From sequence record PZ445551.1: DNA of 64,000 bases; one strand, written 5' to 3'. Position numbers and translations under genes: made by a program. The stretch is from a phage. This document shows positions 1,643-59,723 of the stretch, in pieces (positions within the stretch are counted from its first letter, which is position 1; each line of letters starts with the position of its first letter). The notes under the pieces are model-generated. The model did no database searches. It saw only the letters and a list, made by a program, of their open reading frames with translations, and had not been told where the DNA came from.

Positions 1643-1966
1643 ATGAAATCTGTGATCGGTGTTTATTTGGATAACTCTGATTTTTTCTATCATCGCGCTC
1701 GTTTCCTTGATGCGATTGAAATGATAGAATCAGGCTTTAAAGAGTATCGCCTTGCACATGATGACCTGGAAGCATTACAGGGCAATAGTGTTTTTACATT
1801 GCAAGCTAAAGCACTATGCAAAAGCCGGATCGACATTGCGAGCAAAAAGATAGAACGCGGCATGTCCTGGTTGCGCACCGCAGAAATCAACATGGGGCAA
1901 TGGTACGGCGAAAACTTAGAAAATAAACATACTTTTGTCAATGTAGAAAATATTGAAGATTATTGA
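1643..1966 (+). CDS. hypothetical protein (107 aa)
   Basis: track ORF 1583..1966 trimmed to Met with RBS aaaagggtaaaattATG. Confidence 0.5.
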   Translation: MKSVIGVYLDNSDFFYHRARFLDAIEMIESGFKEYRLAHDDLEALQGNSVFTLQAKALCKSRIDIASKKIERGMSWLRTAEINMGQWYGENLENKHTFVNVENIEDY

Positions 1967-2028
1967 TTGACAGCACACCTAACGGGTAGTATATTGTATC
2001 TCATAGAGCGGGGAAATGGTTTCCCCGC
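1967..2028 (+). promoter_or_regulatory. promoter + conserved 5'-UTR stem-loop cassette (PeSL-like), copy 1
   Basis: TTGACA 1967-1972, 17 nt spacer, TATATT 1990-1995; hairpin GCGGGGAAA-TGG-TTTCCCCGC 2008-2028. Confidence 0.6.
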
Positions 2029-2048
2029 CTTAAAAGAAGAGATAAGCT

Positions 2049-2333
2049 ATGAAGATCACAAAAGCACTTTCCAACTATGCAGCACGTCGCGGATTATGTT
2101 TAACCGTTGAAAATTTAGGGAAAGAAGATTTTTTGTGCTTTTGGGAGCTTGAGAATGATAATGAGTGGATCTTCTCTTATTCTATCTGCGAAGATCAAAA
2201 CGGTTGTTTATTAACCTGGCGCGGTAATATCTATTTACCGGAAGAAATCAAAGAAGAATTACCAGGCACGATCATGACTGAGAAACAGCTTAAGGAAGTG
2301 ATCAATTTTGTAGGGCAAAACATTAAAAAATAA
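2049..2333 (+). CDS. hypothetical protein (94 aa)
   Basis: track ORF downstream of promoter/hairpin cassette. Confidence 0.55.
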   Translation: MKITKALSNYAARRGLCLTVENLGKEDFLCFWELENDNEWIFSYSICEDQNGCLLTWRGNIYLPEEIKEELPGTIMTEKQLKEVINFVGQNIKK

Positions 2334-2334
2334 T

Positions 2335-2392
2335 TTGACACTAGGCAAACAACGTAGTAAAGTTTATCACATAGGGCGGCAATAGTGCCGCT
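2335..2392 (+). promoter_or_regulatory. promoter + conserved 5'-UTR stem-loop cassette, copy 2
   Basis: TTGACA 2335-2340, -10 TAAAGT 2358-2363, hairpin GGGCGGCAATAGTGCCGCTC 2374-2392. Confidence 0.55.
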
Positions 2393-2414
2393 CATAACAG
2401 AAGAGAAACAAATC

Positions 2415-2585
2415 ATGATCCCGACTATGTTTTATGTATCGCGCAAAGGTCACAATATTTTTTGGTCTGAAGATTTAAATGAAGCTATGACGTTTGCCCG
2501 TGATCGTGTCGCTATCGGTGGCGTTAACATCACTGTAACCGATGAAAACGGCATTGAATACTATAACGGCGACGATGAAGAGTAA
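2415..2585 (+). CDS. hypothetical protein (56 aa)
   Basis: track ORF 2385..2585 begins at GTG inside the hairpin; trimmed to ATG 2415 with RBS gaagag. Confidence 0.45.
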   Translation: MIPTMFYVSRKGHNIFWSEDLNEAMTFARDRVAIGGVNITVTDENGIEYYNGDDEE

Positions 2586-2592
2586 TCAACAA

Positions 2593-2610
2593 GGCGGGAT
2601 TAATCCCGCC
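2593..2610 (+). terminator. GC hairpin GGCGGGA-ttaa-TCCCGCC, terminator-like
   Basis: perfect 7-bp stem after stop of 2415..2585; weak T tract; stem sequence echoes the cassette hairpins. Confidence 0.35.
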
Positions 2611-2629
2611 TGTATTAAAGGGTAATATA

Positions 2630-2767
2630 ATGAAAACTTTCAACGCAACAGCCTCGACAATTGGTTATATTATTACAGTGCAAGCCGTTGACCTGGTAGC
2701 GGCAGCAAACAAGATTAAAAAGATGATCCCAACAGGCAGCGAATTTTCCGTTTGGGAAGTAAAATAA
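2630..2767 (+). CDS. small hypothetical protein (45 aa), not in track
   Basis: ATG 2630, in-frame stop 2765-2767; lies between two cassette units. Confidence 0.3.
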   Translation: MKTFNATASTIGYIITVQAVDLVAAANKIKKMIPTGSEFSVWEVK

Positions 2768-2770
2768 ATC

Positions 2771-2828
2771 TTGACAATAGTTTATTACTTGATAGAATGT
2801 ATTTCGTAGGGCGGCAATAGTGCCGCTC
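2771..2828 (+). promoter_or_regulatory. promoter + conserved 5'-UTR stem-loop cassette, copy 3
   Basis: TTGACA 2771-2776, -10 TAGAAT 2793-2798, hairpin GGGCGGCAATAGTGCCGCTC 2809-2828 (identical to copy 2). Confidence 0.6.
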
Positions 2829-2849
2829 ACAACTAAAAGAGAAATCATC

Positions 2850-3044
2850 ATGGCGCTTAAAAAATTAACAAGCAATACTCGTTGGGATGAAATCGACGGG
2901 GAAGTATACATTTTCGCCCGTAAACCAGGTGATCAAAAATGGTCAAAGGCTTTTACTTGCCACCCTGCAACAATAGATCTAATAAAAAGTAAAGGTTTAC
3001 GTGAAGCAGTAGCGAGAAGTTTACTGATCCCTTATAAAAAATAG
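2850..3044 (+). CDS. hypothetical protein (64 aa)
   Basis: track ORF trimmed to ATG 2850 after RBS aaaagagaaatc. Confidence 0.5.
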   Translation: MALKKLTSNTRWDEIDGEVYIFARKPGDQKWSKAFTCHPATIDLIKSKGLREAVARSLLIPYKK

Positions 3045-3107
3045 TTTGACAATATGCTGTTATCTGGTAAAGTGTACGACATAGGGCGGGGCAATAAGGC
3101 AACGCCC
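3045..3107 (+). promoter_or_regulatory. promoter + degenerate stem-loop cassette, copy 4
   Basis: TTGACA 3045-3050, -10 TAAAGT 3067-3072, GGGCGGGGCAATAAGGCAACGCCC variant hairpin. Confidence 0.45.
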
Positions 3108-3125
3108 ATTAATGAGGGTAGAATC

Positions 3126-3230
3126 ATGTTAGAGAAAATTTTCACGGTTGTAGTAGTTGGCCTGGCGTTATCGGTTGGATTGGTTGCAACTATGGCTAAC
3201 ATGATCCTATCTTCCCACGGTATTGGATAA
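3126..3230 (+). CDS. small membrane peptide (34 aa), not in track
   Basis: ATG 3126 after RBS gagggtagaatc; hydrophobic core VVVVGLALSVGLVATMA. Confidence 0.35.
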   Translation: MLEKIFTVVVVGLALSVGLVATMANMILSSHGIG

Positions 3231-3240
3231 GGTGAATCAA

Positions 3241-3456
3241 ATGATCACGAATAAGACAGGTAAAACAGAATTTTTACGCGGCTTGCAAATAGGTAAACCT
3301 GAGATCTGGCATTGCACTAAATCCGCGCATAATGAAATGAAAGATTTTACCGCTACTTTACAACGTGTTAAAATATCTATCACGCAGAAAAAAGCCTTGT
3401 TAGTAGTAGAAAACGAGATACCGCAAACCATTATTATTGTCGAGCGTACAGCATGA
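3241..3456 (+). CDS. hypothetical protein (71 aa)
   Basis: track ORF 3223..3456 trimmed to ATG 3241 with RBS aaggtg. Confidence 0.5.
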   Translation: MITNKTGKTEFLRGLQIGKPEIWHCTKSAHNEMKDFTATLQRVKISITQKKALLVVENEIPQTIIIVERTA

Positions 3457-3839
3457 AAACTGAAATCATTATTGAAATCATCAACGGTTATAAAGAAGCC
3501 TTTATTTTTGCTGAATCAGCCAGGGATCATGAAGGCTATTTTATTGATAACTTAGACGATTATGATTTTTCAGATCAAGCCCATCAGCGGATCATTCATG
3601 ACGTAGCGGCTTATTGTGATGCCAATGATGCTGCTATCTCTGAGGCAATGAGCGACGGCGCTACAGCAAACCAGATCGGGAATGATTTACATTTTACCCG
3701 TAACGGTCACGGCGTAGGCTTTTGGGATCGCCCTGAAATATACACTACTAACACCGCCAACCGCCTAACAAATGCAGCTAAATTAATGCCATCGGTGCAT
3801 GCTTACATTGGTGAAGATAATTTGATTTATATTGAATAA
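3453..3839 (+). CDS. hypothetical protein (128 aa)
   Basis: track ORF; ATGA start/stop overlap with upstream gene. Confidence 0.55.
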   Translation: MKTEIIIEIINGYKEAFIFAESARDHEGYFIDNLDDYDFSDQAHQRIIHDVAAYCDANDAAISEAMSDGATANQIGNDLHFTRNGHGVGFWDRPEIYTTNTANRLTNAAKLMPSVHAYIGEDNLIYIE

Positions 3840-3845
3840 AAAGTA

Positions 3846-3904
3846 TTGACACCGATCCCCCATATGGTATTATTTACCACGTAGGCGGGAAATGGTTTCC
3901 CGCC
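3846..3904 (+). promoter_or_regulatory. promoter + conserved 5'-UTR stem-loop cassette, copy 5
   Basis: TTGACA 3846-3851, -10 TATTAT 3868-3873, hairpin GGCGGGAAA-TGG-TTTCCCGCC 3884-3904. Confidence 0.6.
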
Positions 3905-3927
3905 AGGTAATCAAAAAGGTAAATACT

Positions 3928-4317
3928 ATGCGCAACCTGGTTTCTGTTTCTAACGTTGAAAAATTTCAATCCTTGCAGGGTATCGTTAACAACGTAGCGC
4001 CTTTTTTAGTCAATGGCTTGATTGCAAAGATGAAAAATAAACATCATGCGGCATGGTCTGCTTACTGCTTTGATAATGATGAAAAAGCGGCTGAAATGAT
4101 GTTAGATATGCTGTTAAATAGTGTAGAAACATCTTTACCGGAAAACATCGCAGAAGAGATCACCTATCGTTATAATATGGCGATCACTTACCAGGAGGTT
4201 GCGCAATTTAATATGATGGATGATGACGAACAACAGGATCAGGAAATGTTTTGGGAGTATGCAGATCGTCAATCGGCTTTTGATGAAAAGTTAGCGATGT
4301 ATTATAACGAATATTAA
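3928..4317 (+). CDS. hypothetical acidic protein (129 aa)
   Basis: track ORF 3892..4317 starts inside the hairpin loop; trimmed to ATG 3928. Confidence 0.5.
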   Translation: MRNLVSVSNVEKFQSLQGIVNNVAPFLVNGLIAKMKNKHHAAWSAYCFDNDEKAAEMMLDMLLNSVETSLPENIAEEITYRYNMAITYQEVAQFNMMDDDEQQDQEMFWEYADRQSAFDEKLAMYYNEY

Positions 4318-4333
4318 TACACGGTAAAAGAAA

Positions 4334-4357
4334 GGGGCGCACTAAGCGCCCTTTTTT
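4334..4357 (+). terminator. rho-independent terminator
   Basis: ggggcgc-actaa-gcgccc hairpin followed by TTTTTT. Confidence 0.65.
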
Positions 4358-4703
4358 GTATTCTTTTTTCACGATGGAAGTAACACGTAAAGAATAAACG
4401 TAAAAGGTGGTGTAAAACAGCCTAAAACCGATTATAACCGCTTAAACAAGGTAGTAATGACTAATCACCTTGCCAGGATGAAAAAGCTGTTATAAAGCTA
4501 TTTAGAGCGTTTAAAGCACATAGGAAATAATTTGCTTTTTATCTTGCCTTTTATCCTGCTTTTGATTATTATTATGGAACGGGCGGCACCTGGGGACAGG
4601 GGAAGGTAATCACCGGAAGATCCCGCTATATATTGATAGCTAATATCTATTAAACAACAAAACATCAAAGGAATAAACTATCAAATCTTTACAATTCTAC
4701 CTA

Positions 4704-4763
4704 TTGACACAGGATCACCCTTATAATAAGATGTATCCAGTAGGGCGGGAAATGGTTTCCCGC
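4704..4763 (+). promoter_or_regulatory. promoter + conserved 5'-UTR stem-loop cassette, copy 6
   Basis: TTGACA 4704-4709, 17 nt, TAAGAT 4727-4732; hairpin GCGGGAAATGGTTTCCCGC 4745-4763. Confidence 0.6.
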
Positions 4764-4782
4764 TTGATATAGGAATCATACC

Positions 4783-5016
4783 ATGATCGAACAAATTAAA
4801 AGCACTACACCAAATGTTAACGGCAATGTTTCACACTTTATCGGGGATAATGAAAGGGGTACACCATACGCCGCCGTAACCGTGCAACCTAATGGCGATT
4901 ATTGGTTTACCGTGTACGGATCATATTCTTTCGGACGCCCGGCACATGATAAGATCTTGCAAGCGGTTAAGCCTACTGGGAAGAATATCACAGCAGAAAA
5001 ATTTTATAAAAAATAG
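4783..5016 (+). CDS. hypothetical protein (77 aa)
   Basis: track ORF; RBS taggaatc. Confidence 0.55.
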   Translation: MIEQIKSTTPNVNGNVSHFIGDNERGTPYAAVTVQPNGDYWFTVYGSYSFGRPAHDKILQAVKPTGKNITAEKFYKK

Positions 5017-20313: not shown

Positions 20314-21126
20314 TTACTTAGTCAAATGATCTTCTATCATTTTTATGAAAGCAGGATTGCTAAAAGCATCTGCTGCCTTTTCTCTATAAACAAAGACTCC
20401 TCTATCTTCGTAAAGAAGAGTTTCTTCGTAATTAATTCCTGGGTTAACAACAATCATTTTTATACCCATAGTAAGTGCAGGGAATAATTCCCAATTAAAA
20501 TTGATAACTTGGTTTGAACATCCTACTACAACAACCAAATCTTGCATGGTCAAAGTATCAAACAAGTGAGCCATATCTGCATACAAAGGTGCAGCCTCAC
20601 CAAAAAATACAACATTAGGCTTCACCCAGTTATAATCATCTATGTTTATACTATTGTAACCAATGTCTACCAGTGTTTTGTAATCTCCAGGGTGCATACG
20701 GTAAACTACTTCAGGAAGATACCCGTGCACGTGAATAACAGAATCCCTGTCCACACCTGCTCGCTCTAGTAGATCATCAACGTTTGTTGTCAAGTTTACT
20801 ACTTGGTTAGGATATTCCTTAAACCACTTTGCTATTTGAATATGTGCAGCATTAGGTTGTACATCTTTAAGCTCAACACGTCTTTTGTTATAAAATTCGT
20901 GTGTTTTGGCATACAAGTCCATACCGTTCTCGTCTACACCACCGACCACTGGAAGATCTGGAGATGTTCTCACACGATAACCTGCTTGGAAAGCTCCAAT
21001 ATCGCAGACCTCTTCTAAATCATATTCTTCCCACAAGGCACGACCACTATCTGTGTCTGTTCGGAATGTTCGAATCCCACTGTCTGCACTTAAACCTGCG
21101 CCACTAACAAAAATTACTCTTCGCAT
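20314..21126 (-). CDS. Sir2-family (sirtuin-like) NAD+-dependent protein, no zinc-ribbon cysteines
   Basis: N-terminal GAGLSADSGIRTFR matches sirtuin GAGxSxxxGIPxFR; VIHVHG catalytic His; 270 aa. Confidence 0.7.
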   Translation of the reverse strand: MRRVIFVSGAGLSADSGIRTFRTDTDSGRALWEEYDLEEVCDIGAFQAGYRVRTSPDLPVVGGVDENGMDLYAKTHEFYNKRRVELKDVQPNAAHIQIAKWFKEYPNQVVNLTTNVDDLLERAGVDRDSVIHVHGYLPEVVYRMHPGDYKTLVDIGYNSINIDDYNWVKPNVVFFGEAAPLYADMAHLFDTLTMQDLVVVVGCSNQVINFNWELFPALTMGIKMIVVNPGINYEETLLYEDRGVFVYREKAADAFSNPAFIKMIEDHLTK

Positions 21127-29620: not shown

Positions 29621-30274
29621 TTAATTATCAGAGGACACTTTATCAAGTTTTTCAGAGACTGTCAATACTTTTTCTTGTGATTCTTTCATTTCTGCTAAAA
29701 TACTTTCAGCTTCATCACTATCAGGATCACCAGTCAACAGCATACTAATTAGTTGCTCCTTGCTGAAGTTCAGAATATCTTCCGCTGTTAGCTCCAGTTG
29801 TTCTTCGATCTCTTCAATAAAAGTTTCACCGCCGGAAAAAGCATCTCGTAGTTTTGCAACTTCCATCGCTTCTTCTGGAGTTGCCCCTGCATCTAAAGCT
29901 GCTAAAGCAAAATCTGCCCCACTACCAACAGCATAATAATCTTCAGTTAAAGGATATGCTCGCGTGGGATTATTACCCTCGTGCATATAAATTTTACCGT
30001 CTGGGTGAACAACCAATGCCACAAATTCTTCATCTTCTTTATCAGGATCTGACTGGATCACCAAACCTGGGATTGTCTCTTGTGCTGCTTGGCATTGTAA
30101 GTTTTGTTCGAACCAAGAAAAGAAAGTCAGGATAGAAGACAGACGTCCTGCACCACCAACAAGGTAGTCCCCAATTTTACGCACTTTCTTGAAATTTAAA
30201 GTGTCTACACGACTACCTACTGTTACTTTACCGTCAGACAGAATTTTGTTACGTGTTGCAATAATTGTTGTCAT
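29621..30274 (-). CDS. HslV-like Ntn-hydrolase (proteasome beta-type) protease subunit
   Basis: MTTIIATRN (Thr2), KVRKIGD, GGAG, AVGSGADFALAAL resemble HslV; acidic C-terminal extension. Confidence 0.6.
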   Translation of the reverse strand: MTTIIATRNKILSDGKVTVGSRVDTLNFKKVRKIGDYLVGGAGRLSSILTFFSWFEQNLQCQAAQETIPGLVIQSDPDKEDEEFVALVVHPDGKIYMHEGNNPTRAYPLTEDYYAVGSGADFALAALDAGATPEEAMEVAKLRDAFSGGETFIEEIEEQLELTAEDILNFSKEQLISMLLTGDPDSDEAESILAEMKESQEKVLTVSEKLDKVSSDN

Positions 30275-55392: not shown

Positions 55393-55761
55393 CTAATTAA
55401 TGTCAGCACTATGATTGTTGAGAGTATAGGATACTCCATCGCCCAAGTCAACATGAATCTCAACTCCTAACTGTCTTTCTAATGGTAAACGTTTTGAGAA
55501 TTGATAATTACAAAGTTTACAGTCTAAGTCAAGCAATTCATGTTTGCTTAAACCTAGGATGATAACTTTGCTTCCCACTGTCCACTCAATACCTTCAAAG
55601 TTATCTCTTCTTTTCAAAATGTCAAGTAAGAAGATGATTTGTTGCCATTCCGTAGACAAGTCTTCTTCATAGAACGCAGAACAAAAAGTTTTATCATCGT
55701 AGAAAGCATACATTATGCCTCCATCTATTGTTTCACTTCTAACGTAACGTGTGACCCTCAT
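55393..55761 (-). CDS. hypothetical protein (122 aa), first gene of the minus-strand module
   Basis: track ORF; RBS aggagg upstream. Confidence 0.5.
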   Translation of the reverse strand: MRVTRYVRSETIDGGIMYAFYDDKTFCSAFYEEDLSTEWQQIIFLLDILKRRDNFEGIEWTVGSKVIILGLSKHELLDLDCKLCNYQFSKRLPLERQLGVEIHVDLGDGVSYTLNNHSADIN

Positions 55762-56102
55762 TATTTCCTCCTGTACGGCTCTGTAACGAGCTAATAGCCT
55801 CTAAGATATGCAATCACCTTACCTCACAGTAAAACTCGTTACAATCGTTTTTAGGAGGTTTAGGTTGTACTTAAAAATAATCTAAAAAGGTGTTGACAAA
55901 CGCAAAAAAGTATGCTACCCTAACCCCCGAAAAACGCCGAGCGCAGCGAGGGGGTGTTATCTAATCTTGTGATACATGATCTAACAGACAACTGAGTAGT
56001 CTACATATAGCACTATGTTATGTCTATAATACTAACATACATACTCTATACTAACAATAGATTCTTTATTAATTTTATTATTAATTAAATAATAAATATC
56101 TA

Positions 56103-56131
56103 TTGACTTTAGATCTATCTGTATGTAGAGT
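56103..56131 (+). promoter_or_regulatory. sigma70-like promoter TTGACT-17-TAGAGT
   Basis: read directly upstream of the Prs-like gene. Confidence 0.5.
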
Positions 56132-56170
56132 AGAGAACATAAAGTCCTAACTCAACTAAGGAGATAAACA

Positions 56171-57064
56171 ATGAAAGTTAGTATTCTACATGGTGTTGAC
56201 TGTTATGTTACTGATGTAGACGTTAAAGTCTTTACATTCTCTGGTGGAGAACAACATGTTCAACTAGATACGAATCTATCAGGTTTCAATCATGCTACAG
56301 ACAGAATCTTACTCTCTTTAGAAGTAAGATCTGCTAAAGACTTGATGACTTTGGTTATGACTAAGAATGCATTGGACAATATGCTATATCATAAACCATA
56401 TTGTGTTGATTTACTCATGCTGTATGTGCCATATGCACGACAAGACAGAGTGTGTGAACCTGGGGAAGCATTCGGAGTTAAAGCATTTGCTTCTATAATT
56501 AATTCATTAAATTTCTCACGTGTTATCGTTGCTGATCCACATAGTGATGTTACTCCAGCAGTGTTTGACAGACTCTGTGTAATACCTCAAGAAGAGATTG
56601 CTTACGAAACTTTAAAATGGAAGTTACGTATGGAGAATTTTGCTCTTGTTAGCCCTGATGGTGGTGCTCTTAAGAAAATATTTAAATTATCTAAGAAAAT
56701 GTCTTTAGATGTGTTCTGTGCAGAGAAGGTTAGAGATACCGCAACAGGTGCTATTGTTCGTACAGACATTTCTGTACAGGATTTCAATAAGCGTAACCTG
56801 ATGATCGTAGATGATATCTGTGATGGTGGTAGAACTTTTATCGAATTGGCTAAAGTGCTACGTGCTCGTAACGCAGGTAAGATTGAGTTATATGTTACAC
56901 ACGGTATCTTTTCTAAAGGTCTTAAAGAGTTAAGTGAGCACTTTGACTGCATTCATTCTCTTAATGTGTGGGAAGATAACATCCAAGAAGATTCCGGTGT
57001 TCTTGTTAAGAATCAGTCAGATTTGCAACAACAAATTGTATCTCCATACGTGTGGAATTTTTAA
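56171..57064 (+). CDS. ribose-phosphate pyrophosphokinase (Prs) family protein; candidate ADP-ribose pyrophosphate synthetase (Adps-like)
   Basis: VPYARQDR, VSPDGGA, MIVDDICDGGRT, VTHGIFS motifs of the PRPP synthetase fold. Confidence 0.75.
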   Translation: MKVSILHGVDCYVTDVDVKVFTFSGGEQHVQLDTNLSGFNHATDRILLSLEVRSAKDLMTLVMTKNALDNMLYHKPYCVDLLMLYVPYARQDRVCEPGEAFGVKAFASIINSLNFSRVIVADPHSDVTPAVFDRLCVIPQEEIAYETLKWKLRMENFALVSPDGGALKKIFKLSKKMSLDVFCAEKVRDTATGAIVRTDISVQDFNKRNLMIVDDICDGGRTFIELAKVLRARNAGKIELYVTHGIFSKGLKELSEHFDCIHSLNVWEDNIQEDSGVLVKNQSDLQQQIVSPYVWNF

Positions 57065-57074
57065 ATAATAAGTG

Positions 57075-57103
57075 TTGACAACAGGGAGTATGCTTAGTAA
57101 GAT
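57075..57103 (+). promoter_or_regulatory. sigma70-like promoter TTGACA-17-TAAGAT overlapped by 7-bp inverted repeat GGGAGTA/TACTCCC
   Basis: read directly upstream of the NAMPT-like gene. Confidence 0.5.
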
Positions 57104-57135
57104 ACTCCCACACTAACAAACAAGGAGACATAACT

Positions 57136-58884
57136 ATGAATATTTTTGCACCTTTTGCTACTGATTGGTATAAACCTGGTCACAAGCAGATGTACAACCA
57201 AAATACAAAACTCATTTTCTCTAATTTAACTCCTCGTAATGATAAAAACTTTGCACACTATGCAGATCGTGAAGCACGTGGTGTGATTGTTTTAGGTATT
57301 CGTCGAGCAGTCACCGATGCCCTTGTAACTATGTGGGACAGCTTCTTTAAAATGTCTCGTAGTGCAGCAGTAAATAAATTTTATCGTATGTCTAAAAATG
57401 CATTAGGTGCTTCTGCTCCTTCTGCTGAATGTTGGGGAGAATTGCACGATTTAGGTTATCTTCCGCTAGAAGTTCGATCTCTGCCAGAAGGTGTTTTGTG
57501 TCCTATTGGTGTTCCTGTGTTTACTGTGCATAACACTTTAGAAAAATTCTTTTGGTTAACTAACTATGTGGAAACACTATTGTCAGATGAAACTTGGAAG
57601 ACAATGACTAACGCCACAGCAGCTTTTCAGTATAAGCGTATCGCTATGGCGTATGCGATGGCAACGTGTGATAACATTGATCACGTTAATTTCCAGTGTC
57701 ATGACTTTAGTCTACGTGGCTTAAGCAATATCGAAGATGGTTATAAGAGTGGTATCGCTCATTTGGCATCTTTCACAGGAACAGATAATATTCTGGCTAT
57801 TGAAACTGTGCATGATTACTATGGTATTGATTATGATCAATTTGTTGCAGGTTCTATTCCGGCAACAGAACATTCAGTAGCAACGACTAACATTGGAGCT
57901 ATTGTTGAAGATCTGAAGAAACATTTCCCACATCTTAAAGATGATGTTGATGGGCTTCGTTATGTAGCAGAGAAAGAGTTTCTTCGCCGCTATATTGAAG
58001 AAATTGTCCCAGAAGGTTTTTGTTCATATGTAGCAGATTCTTATGATTACTGGGCTGTCTTGACTCGCATTCTGGTAGAATTGAAAGAGTCCATTATGTC
58101 ACGAAATGGTCGTCTTGTTATTCGTCCAGATTCAGGAGATCCGGTTAAAGTTGTTGCAGGATACAATGTTGAATCTTTTGATAACTATGAAGACCTTTTA
58201 AATAATGGTATTGCTACAGCCACTGAAGTAGTACATTTGGCTGATGTTAATAAGTATTACAATGTTCTTCAGGATTGCAGTGTTGCTGATTGTATCGATG
58301 AAACTTATGAGATTCCTTATTGTGAAGCAGTAGGTTCTATTCAAATCCTTTGGGAAGTGTTTGGCGGTACTATCAACCGAAAAGGCTACAAGGTTCTTGA
58401 TCAGCACATCGGTATGATTTATGGTGATTCTATTACTGTTGAACGAGAACACGAAATCTTACGCCGACTGAAGAAGAAAGGCTTTGCTGCTTCCAATATT
58501 GTATTTGGTGTTGGTAGTTATACTTATCAGTTCAATACACGAGATACTTTTGGTTTTGCTGTTAAAGCAACAGGTAGTATCATCGGTGAACACGAAATTT
58601 TGGTAAGTAAGGAGCCTAAAACTGATCCTGGTAAACGCTCTGCAAAAGGTTTTATTAAGGTTGTTAAGGATACAAATGGTAAACTTTCTCTTGTGGATAA
58701 TCTTTCTTTTAAAGATATCCAAGATGAAGACAATGAGTTAAAAGTTATCTTCAGGGATGGTACGGTTATTACACCACAAGTAGAAGGACGTGATGAAACA
58801 TTTACTGATATCCGTAACCGTGTTGATGTAGAGGTTCTTCGTACTATGGGAACCATCCAGGTTGACTACATAAAAACTTCGTGA
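57136..58884 (+). CDS. nicotinamide phosphoribosyltransferase (NAMPT/NadV) family protein; candidate nicotinamide ADPR transferase (Namat-like)
   Basis: N-terminal TDWYKPGHKQMY matches the NAMPT TDSYK.TH motif; 582 aa. Confidence 0.75.
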   Translation: MNIFAPFATDWYKPGHKQMYNQNTKLIFSNLTPRNDKNFAHYADREARGVIVLGIRRAVTDALVTMWDSFFKMSRSAAVNKFYRMSKNALGASAPSAECWGELHDLGYLPLEVRSLPEGVLCPIGVPVFTVHNTLEKFFWLTNYVETLLSDETWKTMTNATAAFQYKRIAMAYAMATCDNIDHVNFQCHDFSLRGLSNIEDGYKSGIAHLASFTGTDNILAIETVHDYYGIDYDQFVAGSIPATEHSVATTNIGAIVEDLKKHFPHLKDDVDGLRYVAEKEFLRRYIEEIVPEGFCSYVADSYDYWAVLTRILVELKESIMSRNGRLVIRPDSGDPVKVVAGYNVESFDNYEDLLNNGIATATEVVHLADVNKYYNVLQDCSVADCIDETYEIPYCEAVGSIQILWEVFGGTINRKGYKVLDQHIGMIYGDSITVEREHEILRRLKKKGFAASNIVFGVGSYTYQFNTRDTFGFAVKATGSIIGEHEILVSKEPKTDPGKRSAKGFIKVVKDTNGKLSLVDNLSFKDIQDEDNELKVIFRDGTVITPQVEGRDETFTDIRNRVDVEVLRTMGTIQVDYIKTS

Positions 58885-58940
58885 TAAGATTAAGGTAAGG
58901 AGAGCCTGCAACTGCCCTGGATGGGCTTCACGAAGGATTT

Positions 58941-59162
58941 ATGAAACAACATAATTTTTATTTTCGTTGCCGAGCCTGTAACAGACACTTGACTAATCAC
59001 TCCCGTAGAGACAGGAATGGTAATATTCAAGAGTCGGATCTATGCTCGATTTGTACAAGTTTGGCATTCGACGACAGTCCCGAAAGGGTTTATCAACATC
59101 AAAGTGTAACTGATCTTCTTCTAAATTACACAGCACCAGAGGAGGAATTAGATTTCACATAA
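58941..59162 (+). CDS. small zinc-ribbon protein (73 aa)
   Basis: track ORF; CRACN ... CSIC. Confidence 0.5.
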   Translation: MKQHNFYFRCRACNRHLTNHSRRDRNGNIQESDLCSICTSLAFDDSPERVYQHQSVTDLLLNYTAPEEELDFT

Positions 59163-59175
59163 TTAAGGAAACAGT

Positions 59176-59286
59176 ATGTCTACAGAAATTATTTTTGGCT
59201 TATCTGTTTTTATTGCTCTTGTATCTTTTGTATGCGGTTATACACTAGGTTACAGATCAAGAAAAAATATTGTAAAAACTAGTTGA
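59176..59286 (+). CDS. small membrane peptide (36 aa), not in track
   Basis: ATG 59176 after RBS aaggaaacag; one TM segment. Confidence 0.35.
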   Translation: MSTEIIFGLSVFIALVSFVCGYTLGYRSRKNIVKTS

Positions 59287-59342
59287 CAACATAGCTAGTT
59301 ATTTGCTAAGATAAGCCCAAGTTAAACAAAAAGGAGAAAACT

Positions 59343-59609
59343 ATGACAGAACGTACTTATGGTAAAGAATTGATTGAGAAGCACGTATTGATTGATAATA
59401 AAGGTGGAGCAATCTTTATTTTTGAACCTGAATCAGTTCTTACTGAAAACGAAAATGGTAGCGTTAGCCTTAAAACAGAAAGTTTGGTAATTGACTTCCT
59501 TGCTCTTCTGGATGAAATGGGGCTTCCTCACGAAGAAGAAGCAGCTATTGCTTTGATTGCAGTTCTTCTGGAGAAACGCGAAGCTGGTGAAATGACCCAG
59601 TATGCTTAA
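59343..59609 (+). CDS. hypothetical protein (88 aa)
   Basis: track ORF; RBS aaggagaaa. Confidence 0.55.
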   Translation: MTERTYGKELIEKHVLIDNKGGAIFIFEPESVLTENENGSVSLKTESLVIDFLALLDEMGLPHEEEAAIALIAVLLEKREAGEMTQYA

Positions 59610-59616
59610 TATTCAA

Positions 59617-59692
59617 GGTTCCATAGCTCACTGACGAGAGCGCACACCTCATAAGTGTCGAGGGCAGGGATTGTAACCCTGGGGAACCTCCA
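59617..59692 (+). tRNA. tRNA-Met(CAT) (or Ile2), atypical T-loop ATTGTAA
   Basis: manual cloverleaf: acceptor GGTTCCA/GGGAACC, D-arm GCTC..GAGC, anticodon loop CTCATAA, CCA encoded. Confidence 0.6.
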
Positions 59693-59723
59693 TTTAAAAG
59701 GAGGTGCTATGCATCTCCTATAT

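Follow-up and report, generated by a model that had tools for sequence, protein, structure and literature searches.

A Prs-like and NAMPT-like gene pair in a phi92-like coliphage, very probably a NARP1 module already catalogued in its relatives

A phage that carries a Prs-like gene next to a NAMPT-like gene could be using the pair in two ways. The enzymes could form NAD+ reconstitution pathway 1 (NARP1), or they could be a plain nicotinamide salvage pair, in which a true PRPP synthetase and a true NAMPT/NadV would make NMN and host NadR or PncC/NadD would finish the NAD+. The original prediction favored NARP1 for such a pair in the stretch of phage DNA analyzed here, which is 64,000 bases long and is called the window below. 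The window is the reverse complement of positions 30105..94104 of VivaForever (PP925843.1), with one mismatch over the 64,000 bases; VivaForever is an Escherichia phage, a phi92-like Justusliebigvirus with a genome of 146 kb. The features of the locus, in window coordinates, are as follows.

56103..56131, plus strand: sigma70-like promoter 5' of adps, TTGACT-17-TAGAGT (9/12 consensus; function predicted)
56158..56163, plus strand: AAGGAG ribosome-binding site, 7 nt 5' of the adps ATG (read from the sequence)
56171..57064, plus strand: adps, putative ADP-ribose pyrophosphate synthetase, Prs family, 297 aa (open reading frame and family matches)
57075..57103, plus strand: sigma70-like internal promoter 5' of namat, TTGACA-17-TAAGAT (10/12 consensus)
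57084..57109, unstranded: 8-bp inverted repeat or hairpin, GGGAGTAT-N10-ATACTCCC, over the spacer and -10 box of the namat promoter (sequence)
57122..57127, plus strand: AAGGAG ribosome-binding site, 8 nt 5' of the namat ATG (read from the sequence)
57136..58884, plus strand: namat, putative nicotinamide ADP-ribose transferase, NAMPT family, 582 aa (open reading frame and family matches)

The two genes are neighbors on the same strand, separated by 71 nt, and both lie exactly where the original prediction placed them. All motifs that had been named were recovered as well: YARQDR (aa 88-93), VSPDGGA (aa 160-166) and MIVDDICDGGRT (aa 211-222) in the first protein, and TDWYKPGHK (aa 9-17) in the NAMPT-like protein. 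The pair heads a plus-strand block that extends into the phage tRNA cluster, its neighbors belong to PHROGs of unknown function, and it probably lies in a region that host RNA polymerase transcribes early. Across the 3-kb locus, 55 other phage records are 97-99% identical (56 matching records including VivaForever). The phage's own Sir2 is encoded elsewhere in the window, at 20314..21126 on the minus strand.

Both family assignments held in Pfam, NCBIfam and PHROG searches, with matches to PF00156, PF14572, TIGR01251 and PHROG 619 (E 5e-91) for the Prs-like protein and to PF04095 (E 3e-37), NF006629 (460 bits) and PHROG 448 (E 1.5e-187) for the NAMPT-like protein. Taken at face value these matches favor salvage, as the names of the models say exactly salvage enzymes and GenBank annotates the genes in this way in all 56 related phages. 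The Prs-like protein nevertheless fell below every NCBIfam Prs equivalog cut-off (e.g., NF002095, an equivalog model with a cut-off of 296, gave 98.0 bits), and likewise below that of the subfamily model NF002320 (99.6 against 297); the sole Prs model that it passed was the broad subfamily TIGR01251 (118.8 against 113). It scored 191.9 bits on an Adps HMM from which all Stephanstirmvirinae sequences had been left out vs. 73.1 bits on a Prs HMM, and in a neighbor-joining tree it clustered with the Bas63, SPbetaL1 and Pseudomonas-phage Adps proteins, apart from E. coli and actinobacterial Prs; the local sample behind both the tree and the HMMs was small (6 Adps and 4 Prs). In pairwise comparison SPbetaL1 Adps (82.8 bits) scored only slightly higher than E. 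coli Prs (72.8 bits), and because of this near-tie the clade placement rests on the small-sample tree and HMMs, plus the published tree. The protein matches the Bas61 EmilieFrey entry in Table S1 of Osterman et al. at 100% identity and differs by one residue from that of phi92, whereas the characterized Adps homologs of Bas63 and SPbetaL1 are only 35% identical to it and that of ICP1 about 40%.

The catalytic lysine is conserved in the alignment, K186 of the window protein corresponding to K162 in SPbetaL1, K190 in Bas63 and K194 in E. coli Prs. In SPbetaL1 Adps the K162A substitution inactivated the enzyme and abolished NAD+ formation, and the wild-type protein yielded no PRPP-synthetase product (Osterman et al., bioRxiv 10.1101/2024.02.11.579819), which argues against salvage. 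Neither a PDB sequence search nor a literature search returned a published Adps structure. Together, the tree and profile scores support membership of the window protein in the phage Adps clade rather than among cellular Prs enzymes.

For the second protein, the best PDB matches were 9w5x and 9w5w (397 bits, E 1e-117), compared with 168 bits (approximately E 3e-48) for canonical NAMPT from human and other sources. These two entries are Namat structures, whose numbering agrees with that given for SPbetaL1 Namat residues in PMC12774641. Identity to Bas63 Namat is 39% (399 bits); judged by bit score, SPbetaL1 Namat is closer. Namat enzymes carry an adenine-clamp helix (SCH) with the signature G-S-X-Phi1-X-Phi2-X-Phi3-T-R-D, in which X is aromatic (PMC12774641). 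The window protein matches it exactly with GSYTYQFNTRD at aa 460-470 (X = Y, Y and F; Phi1 = T, Phi2 = Q and Phi3 = N), whereas KVP40 Nampt, whose nadV gene we located in the genome by the published cloning primer, has GGGLLQQLDRD at this position and no adenine clamp. This difference, too, counts against a plain NAMPT.

The catalytic core described for SPbetaL1 Namat (D13, Y15, F189, R192, D215, R306, D308, G360 and D361 plus the catalytic His; PMC12774641) is likewise kept in the window protein, as D10, Y12, F191, R194, D217, A243, H246, R330, D332, G430 and D431, with the catalytic H246 lying in ATEHSV. The protein also has a 57-aa insertion at aa 343-399. In the clamp loop (SCL), Arg, Lys or Tyr occupies the third position, and this residue either stacks on adenine itself or precedes the one that does (PMC12774641). 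The window loop, PR-N-D-K37-N-F, has Lys in third place as does Bas63 (PR-S-D-K-W), followed by Asn and, one position further, Phe, so that the stacking residue is not assignable from sequence. In vitro, Namat enzymes retain roughly half of the NMN activity that NAMPT shows with PRPP (PMC12774641), a point in favor of salvage, and some NMN synthesis is therefore possible.

On the salvage reading the product is NMN, and the original prediction had seen no NMN adenylyltransferase (NMNAT) in the window. This holds for the whole 146-kb genome: none is annotated, and phmmer searches, in which E. coli NadD and NadR were compared with every stop-to-stop segment of 50 aa or longer, found no NMNAT of these two types (best E 1.1). 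A VivaForever protein labeled “nucleotidyltransferase” was considered as a hidden NMNAT and rejected, having only a sub-threshold match to a PolyA_pol head domain. By comparison, 94% of phages carrying a KVP40-type Nampt also encode an NMNAT, and no phage was found to have both NARP1 and NARP2 (Osterman et al., bioRxiv 10.1101/2024.02.11.579819). A salvage route completed by the host also sits poorly with the behavior of Bas63, in which deletion of genes 79-80 caused a roughly 20-fold loss of plating efficiency on SIR2-HerA, in a pncC nadR double-mutant host as well (bioRxiv 10.1101/2024.02.11.579819), so that the intact phage overcame the defense even in that host. We consider plain salvage highly improbable.

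NARP1 phages, 859 in all, were originally called by the presence of adps within 10 genes of a Namat homolog (Osterman et al., bioRxiv 10.1101/2024.02.11.579819); in the window the two are adjacent. This gene structure, the family and clade membership, the catalytic and clamp residues, the lack of any NMNAT homolog in the searches and the identity to catalogued NARP1 proteins are established here, and all sequence-level discriminators tested agree with the Adps/Namat reading over salvage. The pair is thus, very probably, the NARP1 module of a phi92-like coliphage.

In the proposed mechanism, NAD+-depleting defenses (for example SIR2-HerA/Nezha, DSR1/2, type I Thoeris and SEFIR) split NAD+ into ADP-ribose and nicotinamide. 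Adps would then transfer pyrophosphate from ATP to the ribose of ADP-ribose, yielding ADPR-pyrophosphate (ADPR-PP), and Namat would replace the pyrophosphate with nicotinamide to form NAD+ directly, a route that would need neither an NMN intermediate nor an NMN adenylyltransferase. Both reactions, ADPR + ATP to ADPR-PP and ADPR-PP + nicotinamide to NAD+, were demonstrated with the SPbetaL1 enzymes (bioRxiv 10.1101/2024.02.11.579819), and ADPR-PP was detected in infected cells (Osterman et al., bioRxiv 10.1101/2024.02.11.579819). The enzymology, including a preference for ADPR-PP over PRPP, has been demonstrated with enzymes from three sources only (SPbetaL1, P. foliorum and DyoEdafos) and, in vivo, with Bas63; escape from NAD+-depleting defenses has been demonstrated for Bas63, Fado, SBSphiJ knock-ins and ICP1, whose homologs NrsAB counter Nezha in Vibrio cholerae. 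By analogy with these homologs, which are about 35-40% identical (Bas63, SPbetaL1 Adps and ICP1), the window pair is predicted to share both the chemistry and the anti-defense phenotype. The literature searched contained no report of an anti-defense phenotype for any phi92-like phage.

Expression of the two genes was also considered. Each had been credited with its own TTGACA-17 promoter; promoter-like sites are present upstream of both, but only that of namat has TTGACA, the adps site reading TTGACT. Sigma70-like matches across 55700-59400 are not above chance (17 vs. 13.1 ± 3.8 expected). The specific form TTGAC-N17-19-TAAGAT, on the other hand, occurs six times in the window vs. 0.24 expected, and is for this reason a genuine, repeatedly occurring type of phage promoter.

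The only unpublished detail of the locus is the inverted repeat over the namat -10 box. It had been described as a 7-bp repeat enclosing the -10 box; the repeat is real, but its arms are 8 bp (GGGAGTAT at 57084-57091 and ATACTCCC at 57102-57109, with 10 nt between), and the loop contains the -10 box, which overlaps the 3' arm by 2 nt. It is invariant in four phi92-like phages, and the Klebsiella phages KP13-26 and phi1_175008 have an element of the same position and geometry but different sequence, related by compensatory changes. 05F01 and Tr1 lack it; in both, small ORFs with no promoter link adps and namat. An exact 16-mer scan of IMG/VR returned 43 loci, only four of them homologous (three phi92-like and one KP13-26-like), with no new variants.

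One possible, though tentative, explanation is a hairpin in the adps-namat intercistronic read-through mRNA, acting as a stabilizer, processing site or pause site, with its overlap of the promoter being incidental. The element folds stably as RNA in both lineages (-12.9 kcal/mol, z -3.8 in the window; -13.7 kcal/mol, z -3.6 in the KP13-26/phi1_175008 lineage), and one of the compensatory changes is G.U-compatible. A transcript from the internal promoter would start 3' of the hairpin, which would therefore occur only in read-through RNA; lacking a U-tract, it is not an intrinsic terminator. Against this explanation, the covariation comes from only two independent lineages, to which the IMG/VR scan added none, and an Rfam scan of 55500-59700 found no family for the hairpin.

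The operator control suggested in the original prediction, in which a dimeric phage or host protein would bind the repeat and gate Namat expression apart from Adps, appears unlikely. The perfect 8-bp palindromic arms straddling the spacer and -10 box, and the retention of position and geometry with another sequence in KP13-26 and phi1_175008, would suit an operator and support the idea in part. The repeat itself is real and, through compensatory changes, kept in a second lineage, but this fits an RNA hairpin equally well and does not bear out protein binding. One KP13-26 change creates a G.T pair that fits RNA but breaks the DNA palindrome, no candidate regulator was identified, GGGAGTAT is not recurrent at other promoters (three occurrences, two of them the arms of this repeat, vs. 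1.2 expected), and the absence of the element from 05F01 and Tr1 also speaks against an operator.

The pair is real and correctly read as NARP1, but it is already catalogued, ordinary and not new. NARP1 accounts for the survival of about 3-4% of sequenced phages against NAD+-depleting defenses (SIR2-HerA, DSR, Thoeris, SEFIR and others); we found an Adps homolog in 1,567 of 50,697 phage records, and the figure in the discovery paper is 4.3% (Osterman et al., bioRxiv 10.1101/2024.02.11.579819). The practical value of the window instance is annotation, and it opens no long-standing question: the GenBank labels “ribose-phosphate pyrophosphokinase” and “nicotinamide phosphoribosyl transferase” predict the wrong chemistry, and the genes are better read as adps and namat. 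The module also predicts that phi92-like phages used in therapy would be robust to the NAD+-depleting defenses of clinical E. coli. A broader scheme seems distinctly doubtful to us, namely that phi92-like NARP1 is one arm of a dispersed phage NAD+/ADP-ribose toolkit (with Sir2, macrodomain and NADAR proteins) that recycles ADP-ribose from the phage's own enzymes as well as from host NADases, with the hairpin letting Namat be dosed independently of Adps.

Compared with cellular Prs (e.g., E. coli PDB 4s2u), the window Adps shares the fold family and the RQDR, D-x-H, K-x-R and DD..D.GG.T motifs, but it is 28% identical, lacks about 20 N-terminal and 35 C-terminal Prs residues in the alignment, adjoins a Namat gene and, as noted, scores below all equivalog cut-offs. 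NARP2 (KVP40 NadV/Nampt and NatV/Nmnat) resembles the window pair in that its NAMPT-superfamily enzyme uses nicotinamide, yet KVP40 Nampt, without the clamp, reaches only 136 bits against the window Namat, and NARP2 has no Adps and requires the Nmnat that was not found in this genome. NARP1-AP of Vibrio phage Gary (Adps - Macro-domain Adpp - Namat; Osterman et al. 2026 preprint) has the same Adps/Namat core, but no Macro-domain gene lies in or beside the window operon. The phage has a single Macro protein, which is approximately 83 kb from adps-namat; that this distal “phosphatase” might be an unlinked Adpp of a split NARP1-AP is unsupported, its PDB relatives being of TARG1/OARD1 type, with Poa1p (6LFQ) not among the matches.

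The NARP1 module of Bas63 (JohannRWettstein, MZ501086, genes 79-80) has the same gene order, adps then namat on one strand, and its Adps has the catalytic Lys of the window protein as well as the DDICDGGRT and THGIFSKG blocks. The catalytic core and the GS-aromatic-T-aromatic-Q-aromatic-x-TRD adenine clamp of Bas63 and SPbetaL1 Namat match the window Namat, and two insertions are common to the Bas63 and window proteins but missing from SPbetaL1 Namat. The differences from Bas63 lie in the low identities (35% for Adps and 39% for Namat) and in the intergenic gap, 45 nt in Bas63 vs. 71 nt with a promoter-like site and hairpin in the window; the window clamp loop is also longer, and its conserved Lys is followed by Asn instead of Trp. 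The phage families also differ, the window belonging to Stephanstirmvirinae, Bas63 to Felixounavirus and SPbetaL1 being SPbeta-like. VivaForever is a later isolate that is not in Osterman Tables S1 and S2, and a NADAR protein has been reported for Bas60-62. The closest known systems are those of phi92, Bas60 PaulScherrer, Bas61 EmilieFrey and Bas62 JohannJBalmer, whose Prs-like proteins are listed as “Namat within 10 genes = Yes” in Table S1 and whose Namat proteins are listed as “Adps-associated” in Table S2 (bioRxiv 10.1101/2024.02.11.579819); these are essentially the same genes as in the window, and nothing of substance differs.

With a single mismatch in 64,000 bases, the window corresponds to positions 30105..94104 of Escherichia phage VivaForever (PP925843.1) in reverse complement. 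The 3-kb adps-namat locus (56000-59000) is 97-99% identical in 55 further records (56 with VivaForever), almost all of them from phi92-like coliphages (genus Justusliebigvirus), including phi92 and the BASEL phages PaulScherrer (Bas60), EmilieFrey (Bas61) and JohannJBalmer (Bas62). Four records with phi92-like genome sizes (MG065639, MG065645, MG065656, and MG065689), 98.6% identical to the coliphage locus, carry the name "Campylobacter phage" and give Campylobacter jejuni as host; these host labels look doubtful. Both open reading frames of the original prediction were recovered exactly and every peptide motif it quoted is present; the observed gene pair is confirmed, with small corrections to its surroundings:

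56103-56131, plus strand: promoter-like site 5′ of adps, TTGACT-17-TAGAGT, 9/12
56171..57064, plus strand: adps ORF (Prs family), 297 aa
57075-57103, plus strand: promoter-like site 5′ of namat, TTGACA-17-TAAGAT, 10/12
57084-57091 and 57102-57109: 8-bp arms GGGAGTAT and ATACTCCC of an inverted repeat
57136..58884, plus strand: namat ORF (NAMPT family), 582 aa

The genes are 71 nt apart, each with AAGGAG 7-8 nt 5′ of its ATG, and start a plus-strand block, divergent from the upstream minus-strand genes, that leads into a cluster with 15 tRNA calls. ARAGORN also called a tRNA-Met(CAT) at 59617-59692 (plus strand), where the VivaForever record annotates none; an Rfam scan of 55500-59700 gave no tRNA match at E ≤ 1, and the call is possibly a false positive, or else picks up a degenerate tRNA-like sequence.

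The 297-aa protein matches PF00156 and PF14572 (phosphoribosyltransferase and PRPP-synthetase domains), the broad model TIGR01251 (118.8 bits, cut-off 113), and PHROG 619 (E 5e-91); it falls far under all NCBIfam Prs equivalog cut-offs (top equivalog NF002095, 98.0 bits vs. 296). It shares 35% identity with both the Adps of Bas63 (JohannRWettstein; 136 bits) and that of SPbetaL1 (83 bits), and 28% with E. coli Prs (73 bits). Because such pairwise scores alone discriminate Adps from Prs poorly, an alignment of six Adps proteins with four cellular Prs was built. Its neighbor-joining tree places the window protein within the Adps group, and it scores 191.9 bits on an Adps HMM (Bas63, SPbetaL1, and a Pseudomonas-phage Adps; Stephanstirmvirinae sequences excluded) vs. 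73.1 bits on a Prs HMM. In the same alignment, Adps proteins lack ∼20 N-terminal and ∼35 C-terminal residues of Prs and have in common DDICDGG(R/A)T and THGIFSKG, whereas Prs has DDM(I/V)DT(G/A)GT and THP/A. The catalytic lysine is K186, aligned with SPbetaL1 K162 and E. coli K194. Profile comparison with canonical Prs, proposed earlier as a check, thus favors Adps by both tree and HMM.

The 582-aa protein matches PF04095 (E 3e-37), NF006629 (460 bits), and PHROG 448 (E 1.5e-187). Its top PDB matches are 9w5x/9w5w (E 1e-117, 397 bits), then 9ke8 (E 3e-100), vs. ∼E 3e-48 and 168 bits for canonical NAMPTs. All three entries are named "Nicotinamide phosphoribosyltransferase" in the PDB table; because 9w5x chain numbering agrees with the residues that PMC12774641 names for SPbetaL1 Namat, we take 9w5x/9w5w to be that study's structure. 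The window protein scores 399 bits against Bas63 Namat vs. 136 bits against KVP40 Nampt. The structural study defined a Namat-specific adenine "selectivity clamp," with helix consensus G-S-X-Phi1-X-Phi2-X-Phi3-T-R-D, X being aromatic (PMC12774641). GSYTYQFNTRD at residues 460-470 fits it perfectly, unlike GGGLLQQLDRD in KVP40 Nampt, and the catalytic-core residues are conserved throughout. The comparison with NadV/Nampt thus also came out for Namat, by clamp motif and best-matching structures. In the variable clamp loop, the diagnostic third position is Lys, as in Bas63; Asn-Phe follows in place of the Bas63-type Trp, so the stacking residue is not assignable by sequence. The protein carries two insertions that SPbetaL1 Namat and KVP40 Nampt lack, of ∼25 aa after catalytic ATEHSV (57883-57990, residues 250-285) and ∼57 aa after DSGDPVKVVAG (58156-58332, residues 341-399); Bas63 Namat has insertions at both sites.

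Homology and diagnostic motifs support the predicted NARP1 reading, NAD+ rebuilt from ADP-ribose and nicotinamide, and the pair very probably encodes this pathway. Plain nicotinamide salvage through PRPP and NMN is very unlikely, since it would need an NMN adenylyltransferase: the 146-kb genome has none annotated, and when E. coli NadD and NadR were run by phmmer against every stop-to-stop segment of 50 aa or more (884 in all), the best E was 1.1. The absence noted earlier for the window thus extends to the whole genome by annotation and NadD/NadR search. The lone annotated "nucleotidyltransferase" was rejected as a candidate, having only a weak poly(A)-polymerase-head match.

The prediction also gave each gene a TTGACA-17 promoter, which stands for namat; the adps site reads TTGACT. 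Generic sigma70-like matches are not enriched around adps-namat. Given that the TTGAC-N17-19-TAAGAT form occurs six times in the window (0.24 expected) and that the early-gene region has many consensus TTGACA promoters, it is plausible that host RNA polymerase transcribes the pair from these predicted promoters. Two more TTGAC-17/18-TAAGAT sites, both TG-extended, lie just downstream of namat (58862-58890 and 59283-59312, plus strand), preceding a 73-aa ORF (CxxC...CxxC, PHROG 37033) and an 88-aa ORF (PHROG 15056). At 1900-4800 (plus strand) there is a series of consensus TTGACA-16/17-TAnnnT promoters (e.g., 1967-1995, 2335-2363, 2771-2798, 3046-3073, 3846-3873, and 4704-4732), each with a conserved GC-rich hairpin, starting RTAGGGCGG (e.g., ATAGGGCGGCAATAGTGCCGCTC), ∼8-10 nt past its -10 box. 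The arrangement resembles a promoter plus 5′-leader hairpin cassette repeated in the early-gene region; IMG/VR contig L027 has a similar one. Upstream of adps, in the gap between the divergent genes, a promoter-like TTGACA-17-TACCCT precedes a CCCCC...GGGGG hairpin (55893-55965, plus strand), where ARAGORN found no tRNA and Rfam gave just a sub-threshold GA-cis match (E 0.37). In the phi92 record, the matched 3-kb stretch includes an annotated "hypothetical tRNA."

The inverted repeat over the namat promoter is present as predicted, with arms of 8 rather than 7 bp. Its folding energy is -12.9 kcal/mol (z -3.8), and its sequence is unchanged in four phi92-like phages. Klebsiella phages KP13-26 and phi1_175008 (flanks ∼76% identical) have TTGACT-ttgt-GGAGAGGAT-gaatta-ATCTTCTCC at the equivalent position, with pairing kept through T-A to A-T, T-A to G-C, and A-T to G.T changes. 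Klebsiella phage 05F01 and Citrobacter phage Tr1 lack the repeat, the space between their two genes being taken up by small ORFs, and a 16-mer scan of IMG/VR found no further variants. With two independent lineages only, the evidence for a function is suggestive rather than strong. Because of the G.T-compatible change, and because a transcript from the internal promoter would start past the hairpin, we favor a putative RNA element on read-through mRNA over the DNA operator originally suggested. Related Stephanstirmvirinae phages have one or two small ORFs between the genes (segments L010:2717-2920, KP13-26; L016:385-866, 05F01); that of KP13-26 has no PHROG match. Tr1 Namat (L011:2961-5618) is annotated at 885 aa; the extra ∼300 aa point to an insertion or a fused element.

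The phage encodes other NAD+ and ADP-ribose enzymes. A Sir2-family protein lies at 20314-21126, minus strand (PP925843.1 72979..73791; PF02146, E 1.3e-22); an NAD+-rebuilding phage thus also carries an NAD+-consuming enzyme. A 244-aa Macro-domain protein annotated "phosphatase" lies outside the window (PP925843.1 119778..120512; L004:19778-20509). Among solved structures it is closest to TARG1/OARD1-type macrodomains (E about 1e-15 to 1e-10), whereas the Adpp of the three-gene NARP1-AP variant is Poa1p-like, and it is not an obvious unlinked Adpp. The literature also reports a NADAR protein in Bas60-62 and Atd1 in Justusliebigvirus.

The two-gene operon was spotted in four BASEL phages (Osterman et al., bioRxiv 10.1101/2024.02.11.579819). 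In that work, deleting Bas63 genes 79-80 cost ∼20-fold in plating efficiency on SIR2-HerA and deepened the NAD+ drop, wild-type Bas63 escaped even in a host mutant for both pncC and nadR, and ADPR-pyrophosphate (ADPR-PP) was detected in infected cells. SPbetaL1 Adps converts ADPR and ATP to ADPR-PP, from which Namat, preferring it to PRPP, makes NAD+ with nicotinamide; Adps K162A and Namat R306G are inactive. Scoring Adps homologs next to Namat homologs, the authors counted 859 NARP1-positive phage genomes, none with both NARP1 and the Nampt-Nmnat pathway NARP2, and their Table S2 lists the NAMPT-like proteins of phi92 and Bas60-62 as "Adps-associated." The window's 297-aa protein equals the EmilieFrey catalog entry at every residue and differs from that of phi92 solely at residue 10. 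As NARP1, the module has been described and catalogued before; what is left as new is the conserved hairpin that lies over the internal namat promoter.
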